A model generated the notes under the pieces. It was not told the DNA's origin and did no database searches. It saw only the letters and a program-made list of their open reading frames with translations. DNA of 64,000 nucleotides, from positions 36,332,001 through 36,396,000 of the forward strand of contig OX597831.1 in the NCBI GenBank assembly GCA_951406725.2, written 5' to 3'. This stretch comes from Octopus vulgaris (Eukaryota). Position 1 is the first letter of the stretch. Each line of letters opens with the position of its first letter. Shown piece by piece: positions 211 to 49,326 of this stretch. A program made the position numbers and the translations under genes.

Positions 211-377
211 TATATATATATATATATATATATATATATATATATAGTTCAGTAAAATTTAGATTCAGCTGAATATGGTACTTAAGTTAAAGGCACCGGA
301 ATTTAGTATGGTATTATCCATATAATTCAAAATGGGGTGATTACAATCAAAATAAGCAACAAGGATATCCACAGGTA

Positions 378-457
378 ATGCAGTACGATCGTTTCATTTA
401 ATTGAACAATGAAAATAGTACATCAGTTTTAAAATGTATAGCAATCTTCAGCTGCAT
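378..457 (-). ncRNA. Type I hammerhead ribozyme motif
   Basis: Minus strand reads ATGCAG-CTGAAGA-[~50 nt]-GAAAC-GATC-GTA-CTGCAT. Perfect 6-bp stem I, canonical core, palindromic stem III (ACGATCGT), GUA site. Stem II is weak. Confidence 0.7.
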
Positions 458-1335
458 AAAAATATAGATTTTAGTTAAATTCAAAGGATTCATTTGTATA
501 GTTATTTTATTAACCAAAATCACAAAGTGGATAAGTAGATACACAAAGAACATGTTTCACCAACAACATCATAGTTGTAACTGATATTTTTTCACAGGAA
601 GACACTGCTTATCATTGATTTTGTTATTCAGATTTACTACTGGGTGGGGGAGGGTTAGTTCTAATTTATAGACTAGTTTATCACGTCTAATAGAAACTAG
701 AATCTATCTTTTATGGATAGAGTAAAAAGATAGTTGAAGTGGCAGAGTCATAAATCAAGATTTCTTTGAAGTAAAAACCATTTGGTTCAGTAAGAATATA
801 TTTCAGCCAAATTTGCAGGCTAAAGCTGATGGGTTAGGGAGAGTAAAACTTATAATACTTAACTATTTGACAACCATAAACTCAGTGTTAATTTGAAATA
901 CATAGGTACATTTTAGAGAGTTTTTTTCCCCACACAAAAAAATCAGAATAATTTCAGTATTTTACATAATATAGGGATGGAGAATATCGAAATGATTCCA
1001 TATTTATGTAACTTCTATACTAACTTAACATATATTTATAGTTAATTAGTAAATAGTAATTTTTGGTATTAATATGTTAAATTAAAGGAATATATTAAAA
1101 ATTTATATATTTTCTAGATGCTAATAATCTTAGAACATATTTCTTGTATTATAAAATAAATAGTGAAATATATCAGTATGGTTCTGTATAGGTTGAGTAT
1201 GAAATTTATAGAAATATATTATAAATAAAAAGATATAGCGAGTAAATAAGTAAGAAAAATTGGTTCAAAATAAAAATAAAGAAATATAAATGAGTATAAT
1301 GAAAAATAAATATGAATTCCTGTAGAATATTATAG

Positions 1336-1660
1336 ACAGGAATGATGTGGGGTAAGTATCTTGCGGTAAGTAGGTTCCGGGTTCGGTCTCGCTGCATAGC
1401 ATCTTGGGCAAGTGTCTATTACTATAACCAGGGCTTTGTGGGTGAATTTGGTGGACGAAGGCAGAAGGAGACCCTTCGTCCCTGCGTGTGTGTGTGTCAC
1501 CGTGTTGGTGTGTTTACATCCCCGTAGCCTAGCGGTTCGACAAGGGTGACCGCTAGAATAGGTGCTAGGCTTACAAAGAATAGATCCTGGAGTCGATTTG
1601 TTCGACTAAAGGTGGTGCTCCTGTATGGCCGCAGTCAAATGACTGAAACAAATAAAAAGA
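1336..1660 (+). mobile_element. tRNA-derived SINE, family A (diverged)
   Basis: Matches the copies at 44159 and 32518 (cttgggcaagtgtct...ggtgctcc...gcagtcaaatgactgaaac). Confidence 0.8.
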
Positions 1661-1673
1661 ATATATATATATA

Positions 1674-1910
1674 TTTGGCCAGAAGTCAGCTGACAGTAAA
1701 TCAAAATTCCATAAACACTTAATATTTAAATTTTGTTTATTCATTACAATTATGAATGTTTAATAATTGAATGCTGTGATTTAAAATAACCGCTTTTTTT
1801 TCCCAACATTTGTCCTTCATGAACGAAGTCTTATATAAAGTAATTTCTCGTTTTACTCTTGGAATTAAACGGGTTTTGATTTACTGTCAGGTGACTTTTG
1901 GCCAAACCTA
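1674..1910. mobile_element. Tc1/mariner-type MITE
   Basis: ~33-bp TIRs tttggccagaagtcagctgacagtaaatcaaaa / ttttgatttactgtcaggtgacttttggccaaa, TA-repeat flanks, no coding capacity. Confidence 0.8.
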
Positions 1911-45939: not shown

Positions 45940-46057
45940 CAGGTCTGAAGAAGCGCCACTCTAATGTTTAAAACCCCAAATATGTCAAATTTTCCCATGG
46001 AACTTTTTTGTAAGCTGGCGTTAAAAACAGTATTGGTACAGAAACAATTGTAACTGG
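45940..46057 (+). ncRNA. Type I HHR motif with a long stem II insertion, inside a (TA)n-flanked element (45797-46147)
   Basis: CAGGT-CTGAAGA-AGCGCCA...TGGCGTT...GAAAC-AATT-GTA-ACTG. Palindromic ACAATTGT stem III, GUA site. Confidence 0.65.
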
Positions 46058-48254
46058 TCATTAAAGATGTGATAAATTCATTCTTTGTCTTCCTCTTTGG
46101 ATTTTGTGTGTATGTGTGTGTGTGTGCGAACAGACTCTTTGGCATAATTATATATATATATATATATATATATATATATATATATATATATATACTGATA
46201 GGTATATATTTGTACCTGTGATTTGCAAACTTGTATTGAGCAAGAGATAAATGTTTACAAAAGCCATCGTTATCGACTGTCCTATCTCCTCAAGCGTATT
46301 GTATGAGGAATCCGTACTTTTACTAGAGAGAATGTATAAACGAAGAGAGCCTAGAAACAAATATATAAACTCAGTGAAACTTTCATGTACATTAAATTTT
46401 CGACGTTGTTGTTGTTTAACTTCCTATCAGCCCTGAATAAAAAGTCCTATGATTAAAAGCCACGTCATGTTTGAAAGTGTATACAAGACTGTTGTCTTTC
46501 AAATATGGCTGCGTGTGATCTGAGGTGATTTCGTGGCTATTTCCTGCAAGTCATTTCAACTTCATGGACGGCTTCACATCGTTTCATCTGTAGACATTAG
46601 CTTTCGATCAGCTCTGTTTAAACATCCTTCTCAACAAATCGTTTCATCCATGACCAATCGGTCTTATTTGGGGACACTGTGTATCTAAGACATCTGTATA
46701 GCCCCATCAGATATTCTTTCGCTTATCTTTCTTCAATAAAATTACCACACAAATAACTTTTATTCCCGTTACAGGTAGAATTTAAATTTATTTAAAATCT
46801 TCCGGGCTTGAAACATTTGTCTGGAGCGCTTTGTCAATGGTTCTTATCTCATTACCAACATTCTTCTGTCTTTATGACTGCAACACTTAACATTCAATGG
46901 CTTATTCAACCTGGATGTAAATAAGCACCATGATCAGGTACAGCATTTACCCTAAGCAGTGACAAGCCTGCATAATTAACGATTAATTTGTTAGCTGTCA
47001 TCTCTGAGTTTCAATACGTTACTGAACAATACAGTGTAATAAACACTTTCAGGATACAGTATTGTCTCACAAATTGGGCGAGCAAATTCTGCCACAATTT
47101 CTCTCTTCTAATTCCTTCCTATAACTGAATTCATGATAAGTTGTGAGAAAGTTTACTTAATATATTATATATGATCTAATTTGTTTAGAATTCTTCGAAA
47201 AAATGTTAACTTCCTAGGCGTGTTCTAAGATTGGTCTGCAAGTATATTATTTTTCTCTCGTCTTAAGCCTGATTCTTGCATTCAAGCAGTCGGAGCGGAT
47301 TAAGGTTTTTCTTCAATATCGTCTTCATGAATAGATGCATGATCCAAATAATGTTGACTGACAGTTATTTCCCAGTAATACATTCTTTATCTTTTAATTA
47401 CCAGCATACTAAGCGTTGTAGCGTTAACAAAGATAAGGTATTAGAATTCGTTTATACCATATTGCAAGCAATAACATAGTTTAATTCCCTCCAAGCCATA
47501 TTTTCAGTGCAGTTAAGCATCGTAAGGTCAACATAGAATTATTTTGCAAGAATATAAAAAGAAATTGCAGGCGAAGAGTGAAGTATCTCCAACGGTTCAG
47601 TGTGTTCGTTCTTTAGTTAACAGAATTCTTCTTCTTCGACATCTACATACGTTTCCACAAAGTGTATTCTACAGCGTAAAAGATATTGTCACTCAACACT
47701 GGCAATTCTATTTTCCCCATTGAGTAAACAGAAGCTTACTAGATAAATGATTCCGAAATCGTGTACCGTGGTGCACTGATGCGCATGGAGATGCATTGAA
47801 ACTTTTCAAAACTATAATTTGCAGTTTTAGAAATTCCATATAAACGTTTGAGCGTCTTGGAACATTCTATTCATTCTTTTCTTATACACAAAAAACAACC
47901 AGCTTTCAAATTCGCTGAGGTCGACAATGCCTTTCTGAGTCGATAAATTAAGTGTCAGTTGCGTACTGGGGTCGATCTAATCGACTGCCCCGCACCCCCC
48001 AAAATTTCGGGCTTTGTAACTAGAATAGCAAAAGAAATTCGTTAGAGCGTCGGGAAAAAGTGCTATGTGTTATTCATTCTAGCTCTTTACGGTTTGAGTT
48101 CAAATTACGCCGAGGCCAGCTTTGCCTTTTATCCCACCAGACTCAATGAAGTAAGAATCAAGTATTGGGGTCAATGGAATCGACTGACCTAATCCCTTTA
48201 AAAGAAAATGTCCTGTGATAAACTCAGAAACGATTACACTTTGTTTTTATATAT

Positions 48255-48728
48255 CTTTTTATCCTTTACTTGTTTTAGTCATTTGACTGTGGCCATGCTG
48301 GAGCACCGCCTGGAAGAATTTTAGTAGAACTAATCGCCGACCCCAGTCCTTAATTTCTTTTTTAAGCCATGTATTTATTCTCTCGGTCTCTTTGGGGAAT
48401 CACTAAGTTACGGGGACGTAAACACACCAACACCGGTTGTCAAGTGGTGGTCTCACACACACATGTGCATACACACATACATACATACATATATATATAT
48501 GTATGTATGTATGTATATGTATATATATATATATATATATATATATATATATATATATGCACACACACGAGGGGCTTTTTCGTTTTCCATCTGCCAAATC
48601 CACTCACAAGGCTTTGGTCAGCCCGAGGCCATATTGGAAGACTGTTGCCTAAGTTGACATGCAGTGGGGATGAAGCAGGAACCATGTGGTTGGGAAGCAA
48701 ACTTCTTACCACACAGCCACGCCTGTGC
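48255..48728 (-). mobile_element. SINE family A
   Basis: Reverse match to 44159-44585. Confidence 0.85.
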
Positions 48729-48884
48729 CTATACACAACACACACACACACACACACACACACACACATATATATATATATATGCGCGCACCCACACACA
48801 TATGCATATGTGTATGTGTACACATACACATACACGCACAAGCACACACACACACACACACATATATATACAAAAGATATATAG

Positions 48885-49326
48885 GGTAGCGAATATTTAT
48901 AAAAATTTCACTACTAGTGGCCTAGCAAGTATAAAAAATCAATAAACAACATATTTTCAATATAAAATAGTGTACATTTAAACACAAGAGAAAACTATCT
49001 TTCACAGGTAATTTTTACACCCTAGAAGAAGCAGTCAAAACGACCAAAACCACATCTAAGAGCCATTTTCGAAGGGAATGAAAAATAAAAACTGTTACCT
49101 TGTTATTTTTTTACGGTTATACCTAGGCTTCAGATTTCTTTAGCAAATAAAATAATTTGCTAGGCGAATCCTCGTCAGTAACCGTGCCTTAACAACTAAC
49201 ATATAATTTAGAGACAAATAACACGTGTAACATCATTATATGCTATAATTTTTCCAAATGCAGCTCTTCTTGTATCGTGTAAAAATTACCTGTTAAAGGT
49301 AGTTTTCTCTTGTGTTTAAATGTACA
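48885..49326 (-). mobile_element. Miniature PLE-type element: 50-bp inverted repeat enclosing an HHR
   Basis: IR 48971-49020 / 49277-49326, HHR 49113-49185, TA-rich flanks. Confidence 0.7.
49113..49185 (-). ncRNA. Type I HHR motif (GAAG core variant)
   Basis: ACGGTTA-CTGACGA-GGATT..TAGCAAAT-tatttt-ATTTGCTA..AATCT-GAAG-CCTAGG-TA-TAACCGT. Perfect 7-bp stem I. Confidence 0.72.

Follow-up and report, generated by a model that had tools for sequence, protein, structure and literature searches.

We analyzed a 64,000-nucleotide (nt) stretch of the Octopus vulgaris genome (contig OX597831.1, positions 36,332,001-36,396,000; hereafter the window), in which hammerhead ribozyme (HHR)-like strings had been noticed at eight loci (378, 2061, 9890, 17583/21466, 23832, 36966, 45940 and 49113), with partial motifs at ~33120 and 35384, around a Penelope-like element (PLE). 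The original prediction had seen there a single dispersed population of small HHR-bearing retroelements moved by the neighboring PLE. In our reading, which we hold with good confidence, the loci are instead a mixed set made of the truncated ends of at least three PLE clades, two protein-less units and one tRNA-headed end repeat, likely pasted by Penelope-type enzymes.

The PLE is indeed intact. This young element lies at 17484..21585 (-), inserted in (TA)n, and its reading frame (18501-20843, -, 781 codons) carries RVT_1 and GIY-YIG domains between 394-nt inverted repeats, namely a 3' end repeat at 17498-17891 (-) and an inverted arm of opposite orientation at 21192-21585. Both repeats contain an HHR with the variant U3-A8 core, at 17579..17621 (-), where it is found in 25/25 copies, and at 21462..21504 (+). 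Translation yields one open reading frame (ORF) in which the reverse transcriptase (RT) precedes the GIY-YIG domain, with a CX4CxxC linker; a CX2-5CxxC-type linker is a mark of the Neptune type (PMC8557442). The element would thus be a Neptune-type PLE, as assigned from ORF order, linker and end-repeat features. Its 40 scored copies are 99-100% identical, and the 781-codon frame is open in 16 of 150 endonuclease (EN) matches. It possesses an HHR-bearing end repeat, an inverted arm and a tail, with a TA run at the end in 19/25 copies, and its two ends are spaced by 27 nt in 3/3 pairs (values near +300 in this end-spacing comparison are reference-edge artefacts and were ignored). The U3-A8 core has been described for metazoan PLEs (PMC4209133) and is conserved across diverged Neptune subfamilies. 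At locus L255 (oriented ~2500-2545), a Neptune-type HHR with this core displays GCAA replacing GAAA.

Copies of each listed locus were collected by searching the 2.8-Gb genome, 40 candidates being scored and 20-30 loci retained each time, so that counts from these sets describe the best matches and not the whole family. To evaluate the motifs themselves, a type I HHR descriptor, whose core variants were added after data inspection, was run on the window and on 100 dinucleotide shuffles. In the window it matched 5 loci; the shuffles averaged 0.73, and none of them reached 5 (0/100). Four of the five loci were on the earlier list (2061, 9890 and both PLE arms), the fifth being 47674. Family majority sequences were then compared with 500 shuffles each: seven families out of eight (378, 2061, 9890, 23832, 36966, 49113 and the PLE) pass the HHR fold, with 0/500 shuffles in each case. 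Among them, 2061 and 23832 need the A6U and U4C cores to be admitted, and the PLE passes with 1 proximal stem I pair. The core and stem III are intact in 25/25 copies of the window PLE family, 24/30 of 2061, 11/20 of 36966, 10/20 of 378, 9/20 of both 9890 and 49113, and 3/20 of 23832.

Of the window copies at the listed loci, those of 2061 and 9890 and of both PLE arms alone satisfy the descriptor. Four others are damaged: stem II is short by 9 nt at 378, the core is altered at 23832, stem III has a mismatch at 36966, and GAAG stands in place of GAAA at 49113. The eighth family, 45940, possesses the first core half only, GAAA and the closing stems being absent in 20 copies. The coordinates given for the HHR-like strings were correct, and the palindromic stem III and the PLE-type HHRs are borne out, as is the retention of core and stems by family consensi, except at 45940. 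As for the two partial motifs, 35384 proved to be the 3' half of another PLE's HHR and 33120 a single-copy string. That the host elements are mostly unrelated also stands for the seven majority sequences, apart from 2061 and 23832, which are relatives.

Chance matches in AT-rich, microsatellite-rich DNA do account for 33120 and probably for 47674, both single-copy, and would fit the failure of 45940 to fold as well as an Rfam scan of the window in which no hammerhead model appears among 150 listed of 169 matches (a scan of locus L099 gave no hammerhead either). Against chance as a general explanation, the seven majority sequences, unrelated except for the 2061/23832 pair, each pass at 0/500, the U3-A8 HHR is kept across Neptune subfamilies that are only ~70-80% identical, and locus L250 shows a compensatory change in stem II. 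We therefore regard such an explanation as extremely improbable, and refuted for the seven families. Altogether, the HHR folds are real at the family level for 7/8 families, and most window copies are damaged. Since PLE-type HHRs moreover cleave weakly or depend on protein (PMC4209133, PMC11167929), the many self-cleavage sites envisaged for transcripts of the region are unlikely.

By sequence comparison, three loci (378, 2061 and 35384) belong to further PLEs of the Hydra and Neptune types, of which they are 5'-truncated ends. The first, at 247..1338 (-), would be the 3' end of a Hydra-type element, with a fixed 3' end joined to (TA)n and a type I HHR at 378..457 (-) that combines CUGAAGA, an 8-nt palindromic stem III and GUA. 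With at least 1.09 kb, it does not fit the size of 100-450 bp that had been given for the host elements. Longer copies (L210, L230 and L233) extend ~2.2 kb upstream into an EN C-terminus, a CxCX5C linker and an RT thumb. The parent displays CxxC and CxH around conserved E and N, and a TA run accompanies 18/20 copies. A Pfam search with the parent frame gave no match, and the ESM Atlas leads from the EN to GIY-YIG clusters. The CxCX5C linker and the EN motifs mark the Hydra clade (PMC8557442), to which the family can be assigned by linker, EN motifs, (TA)n target and HHR, over the part of the frame from the RT thumb to the EN C-terminus. Its two ends lie at +38 and +137, the tail is ~97 nt long, and the end spacing is 85-101 nt in 7/10 pairs. 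A tandem at L226 was rejected as a measure of unit length because its flanks are duplicated as well. Between the RT thumb and the EN, L233 contains a long asparagine-rich stretch (L233:690-1400) resembling the N-rich inserts described for rotifer Penelope (PMC3846280).

The second stub (1968..2163, -) would be the 5'-truncated 3' end of a Neptune-type family and carries a CUGUCGA core at 2061-2098. Its fixed 3' end is joined to (TA)n in 27/30 copies, the 5' ends are ragged and an RT/GIY-YIG frame is reached in 4/30. The A6U core (CUGUNGA) is fixed in this high-copy family (L001-L030). An older relative with a degenerate HHR (23831-23867) occupies 23742..23932 (-); it is 74% identical to the 2061 family over 109 nt, and its core is of the U4C form. 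Finally, the stub at 35309..35391 (-) is cut off inside its HHR and matches the ends of the EN-bearing loci L255 and L249, which suggests another Neptune-type PLE end. The original prediction had named truncation of autonomous PLEs as the outcome that would count against it, and this is what we find for 378, 2061 and 35384, but not for 36966 and 49113.

These last two loci hold the protein-less mini-units that had been expected more widely among the short loci. At the first, an inverted arm (36819..36935, -) begins with the long end (predicted cut site +262), and a sense arm (36957..37169, +; HHR 36966-37024) ends at the short end (+154) in (TA)n. At the second, the sense arm (48866..49258, -; HHR 49113-49185) ends at the long end (+254) and the inverted arm (49266..49338, +) starts at the short end (+160) and adjoins (TA)n. 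Both window copies thus follow a rule of one long and one short end. Genome-wide, the copies are circular permutations of units with periods of 492 and ~466 nt, whose longest stop-free frames have 81 and 66 codons, respectively; a PLE profile match was obtained in 1/80 loci and lies outside the unit. With no coding capacity and one type I HHR per unit, they appear to be retrozyme-like. The 3' ends cluster at +148-156 (14/20) and +255-262 (5/20) after the predicted cut site for the 492-nt unit, and at +159-177 (9/20) and +243-254 (10/20) for the 466-nt unit. A TA run is found at the end of 16/20 and 14/20 copies, respectively, against a background of 7%.

The longer copies are partial tandems of 1.1-2 units, up to 1.62 units for the 492-nt and 1.98 units for the 466-nt family, and two whole HHRs are present in 6/20 and 1/20 of the best loci. 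Copying therefore ran through the cut site, which would imply as template either a circle or an uncut multimer, two forms that the sequences do not distinguish. The end spacing of these units (~108 and ~85 nt) is near that of the Hydra-type family (85-101 nt), unlike that of the window PLE (27 nt) or of the unit at 9890 described below (~38 nt). Their HHR shape, with an 8-9-nt palindromic stem III and a long stem II, resembles those of 378 and of Hydra-1_Obim. On the basis of end spacing and HHR shape, a Hydra-type enzyme would be the likeliest carrier. A search of the GIY-YIG family gave 30 loci, which are Neptune-type ENs plus one unrelated host-type nuclease, with no partner for the short families.

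The locus at 9890 is of another kind. A tRNA-derived head with A- and B-box-like motifs (9746..9821, +), closest to tRNA-Arg, is followed by an end-repeat body at 9839..9992 (+) that contains an intact minimal HHR (9890-9935) and ends at the short 3' end. An inverted arm, which is a fold-back of head and linker, precedes them at 9630..9745 (-), with a head match at 9754-9687 and an outer edge drawn from sequence. Of 30 tRNA genes from the genome, tRNA-Arg gives the best alignment to the head (z 8.2 vs shuffles); ARAGORN called no tRNA in 14 loci, and Rfam was also silent (L099). The head, an (AAT)n linker and the HHR body form one unit at 9746-9992, the body being present in 29/30 head-selected loci. 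No TA run accompanies this family (0/29 copies), so that the (TA)n boundaries ascribed to the elements hold for six families and fail here. An adjacent inverted arm is found at 18/36 complete heads, compared with 4/80 and 1/48 in two other SINE-like (short interspersed nuclear element) repeats used as controls. The figure of 4/80 was obtained after removing a TA run from the SINE_A control query, which otherwise yielded 19/80 because of that run. A tail of ~35 nt is present on exactly one arm in 13/15 cases, a signature called unique to PLEs (PMC11167929).

The unit is connected with a coding element. A Penelope/Poseidon-type frame continues in 3/30 head-selected loci, 27/30 being without it; in loci selected by the ORF (RVT_1 match, E 7.7e-9), the stop codon is followed by the head in 27/30. 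This parent possesses an RT with a DKG motif and a C-terminal EN without linker zinc finger, the EN being recognized by eye and having no Pfam GIY-YIG match. We assign it provisionally to the Penelope/Poseidon type by motifs, tail length and non-microsatellite target. The end spacing of the unit is mostly 23-49 nt in 30 pairs (~38 nt). None of 7 extended loci yielded a full-length parent that also has an end repeat upstream. Among body-selected copies, 15/20 have a sense head and 0/20 have parent sequence further upstream. ORF-bearing copies end raggedly, in contrast with the sharp 5' end at the head, and the simplest reading is an RNA with its start at the head, which would be copied backward from a start point lying inside the tail.

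One could also assume that the unit is a true SINE, whose solo copies, themselves transcribed by RNA polymerase III (Pol III), multiply on their own by means of a Poseidon-type enzyme. The tRNA-Arg-like head, the sharp 5' end, the lack of the parent frame in 27/30 head-selected copies and a majority head and body without any run of four T would all suit such an element, as would its density, since ~9 loci were found in 400 kb with only 1 ORF-linked. On the other hand, at each of the 5 common polymorphic columns both alleles are represented in the 11 ORF-linked as well as the 40 solo copies, and no solo-specific variant exists among these 51. In the one PLE tested, moreover, the minimal template extends ~55 nt past the RT start (PMC11167929), and the solo copies do not have this portion. 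RNA-seq offers no RNA start: reads with the unit are abundant (8,022/12.9 million, 6,334/12.0 million and 5,790/11.5 million, from an organism that may be another species) without any marked terminus, which points to passenger transcription with no sign of cleavage. We hold independent amplification to be possible but less likely than not. We would not file the unit as a classical SINE, because its 3' part appears to be a PLE end repeat and not a tail shared with a long interspersed nuclear element (LINE). Rather, SINE-like copies may originate from a PLE end repeat that begins with a tRNA-derived sequence.

A further possibility is that the sharp 5' end results from an RT that stops and folds back at a small palindrome on a long RNA, the head having no promoter role. 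A 5-bp palindrome does exist at that point in parent copies, the inverted arms of two ORF-bearing insertions (L308 and L322) stop exactly there, and palindromes at inverted junctions are known for Penelope (PMC3846280). However, the inverted arms of L312, L320, L326 and L330 run past the point, and a 5-bp hairpin would be a weak block for 15/15 headed copies. In the sequence, the A-box-like motif also lies at a tRNA-typical distance from the end. An RT stop thus seems to us rather improbable, and an RNA start at the head is preferred. As side observations on this family, (AAT)n-ended repeats sit inside the (AAT)n linker at L095, L102, L178, L182, L185, L186 and L194, so that the linker seems to be an insertion target itself. 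A second HHR-like string at 9854 was rejected (majority core CUUAGGA, stem I absent).

Do these loci nevertheless form one system, every short one being an independent HHR-SINE or mini-PLE mobilized by the window's intact element? All families are multi-copy (882-2,919 candidates), six are TA-associated, and the PLE is young. However, four families run into other PLE frames, and no sequence is shared between the short families and the window PLE beyond one 20-nt AT-rich match. The end spacing is 27 nt for the window PLE, compared with 85-108 and ~38 nt, and the best copies of the short families are 77-98% identical to the window copy, compared with 99-100% for the PLE. The local density is likewise ordinary: 400 kb of genome stretches picked at arbitrary round coordinates contain 28 loci of the window's families, or 4.5 per 64 kb, and their co-occurrence is thus unremarkable. 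The window itself holds at least one of each family by construction, so no meaningful enrichment could be claimed. This arrangement is in our view very improbable and largely refuted. What remains of the original prediction is PLE mobilization, (TA)n targets and fold-back 5' ends, all of which our data support; they do not support the view that independent mini-elements form one population linked to the neighboring PLE.

We propose the following course of events for the mixed set. A PLE protein would nick DNA rich in A and T, which in the Neptune and Hydra types means (TA)n; here the target bias is observed and the enzyme is presumed. Reverse transcription would then begin internally on the RNA, at two set positions located 40-260 nt downstream of the HHR. 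Five families do have two fixed ends, and for a different PLE internal RT start at two sites has been obtained in vitro (PMC11167929). If each DNA strand received one start, head-to-head arms would result, one having a long and the other a short end. Copying would mostly halt early and leave short stubs that keep the HHR, as the ragged 5' ends indicate. The 492- and 466-nt units, observed as copies of 1.1-2 units, would be copied beyond the cut site from a circle or an uncut multimer, most likely by a Hydra-type enzyme. In the Poseidon-type unit, the tRNA head likely marks a transcription start, to which the sharp 5' end corresponds and at which Pol III may act, and copying back from the tail to this start would produce the solo head-HHR-tail units. 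In its boldest form, this scenario would have a Poseidon-type PLE take a tRNA-Arg-derived Pol III promoter into its end repeat and shed tens of thousands of SINE-like solos, a pairing of SINE and PLE, and Hydra-type PLEs of this genome copy retrozyme circles; we put this forward as a tentative proposal that may well prove wrong.

Several observations weigh against these views. Each copy set is the best 20-30 of 1,000-4,000 candidates and is biased toward its query. The rule of long and short ends is strict in only 5/7 head-to-head pairs of the 492-nt unit and 3/8 of the 466-nt unit. The attribution to a Hydra-type carrier comes from one family here and the published HHR of Hydra-1_Obim, and no sequence in common was found. 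The locus 23832 is tied to PLEs through its likeness to 2061 and not through a reading frame of its own. The RNA-seq reads of the 9890 unit, which are unstranded, are equal on both strands, 71% extend into the flanks, and they show no start or end pile-up. Cleavage, circles and Pol III transcription are, for these families, putative.

In the boldest form of the scenario, the distance between RT starts (~27, 38 and 85-108 nt) would leave in the genome a footprint from which the carrier clade of any ribozyme-bearing passenger could be read. Arguments on the carrier of animal retrozymes have so far drawn on co-occurrence and on the phylogeny of end repeats. Two fixed ends, an inverted arm and a TA target, as insertion marks, would predict exact start sites and the partner clade, which can be tested in the existing in vitro PLE assay. 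A tRNA promoter in a PLE end repeat would also reveal a route for PLE transcription and the origin of a SINE on a non-LINE enzyme. Scattered HHR stubs, for their part, are ordinary and were described in 2014.

The remainder of the window contains other repeats. The family at 45914..46121 (+), identified by sequence comparison and excluded from the HHR count, is an old repeat with half an HHR core (~80% identity) and occasional inverted arms (8 extra matches in 40 scored, mostly on the opposite strand); it is possibly a decayed PLE end. The motif at 33120 was rejected as a mobile HHR, since the genome search gave no second copy. A complete-looking HHR variant absent from the earlier list, with a CUGUAGA core and a 6-bp stem I, lies at 47645-47680 (-); this candidate (47674) was rejected on the same ground, being single-copy in the genome search and probably due to chance. 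The two control repeats are very abundant and occur at many places (e.g. 29861-30099 and 32519-32951), and in one of these SINE-like repeats an internal (TA)n run serves TA-seeking PLEs as a target. A near-perfect hairpin of ~100 nt, with arms near 50 bp and a short loop, is located at the window edge (3-113). Stop-free frames of ordinary composition are present at 12521-13048 (-, 175 codons) and 14591-15031 (+, 146 codons). Two regions, at 42400-43000 (-) and 50500-50700 (-), resemble decayed mariner/Tc1 transposase genes and may be such.

Much of this has precedents, and solitary PLE HHRs, PLE inversions and tails, animal retrozymes with a proposed PLE origin and HHR-bearing tRNA-SINEs are already in print. 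Our literature search, to which subscription papers and preprint supplements did not belong, brought up no tRNA-headed end repeat of a PLE, no tRNA SINE carried by a PLE and no assignment of partners from end spacing. Nor did we find a report of octopus HHR elements, although Repbase, Dfam and SINEBase may contain these families, and the words 'hammerhead' and 'ribozyme' are absent from the main text of the 2026 octopus repeat annotation.

A close precedent is that of the minimal type I HHRs of metazoan PLEs (PMC4209133): there too, truncated PLEs leave solitary HHRs throughout the genome, pairs lie on opposite strands, a base is added after A9, stem III is palindromic and the U3-A8 core variant occurs. 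The octopus 2061 family differs by its fixed CUGUNGA core (24/30), which the available sections of that paper do not mention. The 5' truncation, inverted 5' arm, one-end tail and (TA)n targets are those of the Neptune, Hydra and Penelope/Poseidon clades (PMC8557442, PMC3846280), and the linker and EN motifs of the 378 family match the Hydra clade, whose presence in octopus is shown by Hydra-1_Obim (PMC8557442). The 378 family is distinct from Hydra-1_Obim, however, as its HHR differs, and its tail is ~97 nt long compared with 30-40 nt in the clades as described in the accessible parts of these papers (PMC8557442, PMC3846280).

A parallel can also be drawn with the animal non-LTR (long terminal repeat) retrozymes (PMC7229834; 10.64898/2026.07.22.740005), which are likewise units without protein, a few hundred bases long, each with one type I HHR and a low GC content, occur as dispersed monomers beside tandems, and have PLEs as proposed carriers. 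The 492- and 466-nt copies comprise 1.1-2 units where animal retrozymes form long arrays (PMC7229834; 10.64898/2026.07.22.740005), and the PLE insertion marks that they bear (two fixed ends, inverted arm and TA target) are a kind of evidence absent from the retrozyme papers cited, as far as their available sections go. For the 9890 unit, Anolis Poseidon PAc (PMC11167929) offers the same two RT starts defining a tail, the same AT-rich non-microsatellite targets and the same absence of RNA-seq ends at the HHR site, but no tRNA head is reported there. Short repeats of high copy number in which such a head precedes a type I HHR are known in Schistosoma as Sm-alpha and Sj-alpha (PMC2770079, PMC6765202). 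In the accessible parts of these papers, both are tandem SINE-like repeats for which no parent PLE is named (PMC2770079, PMC6765202), unlike the octopus head and HHR, which would make up an end repeat belonging to a coding PLE of the Poseidon type, with copies that are solo or head-to-head.

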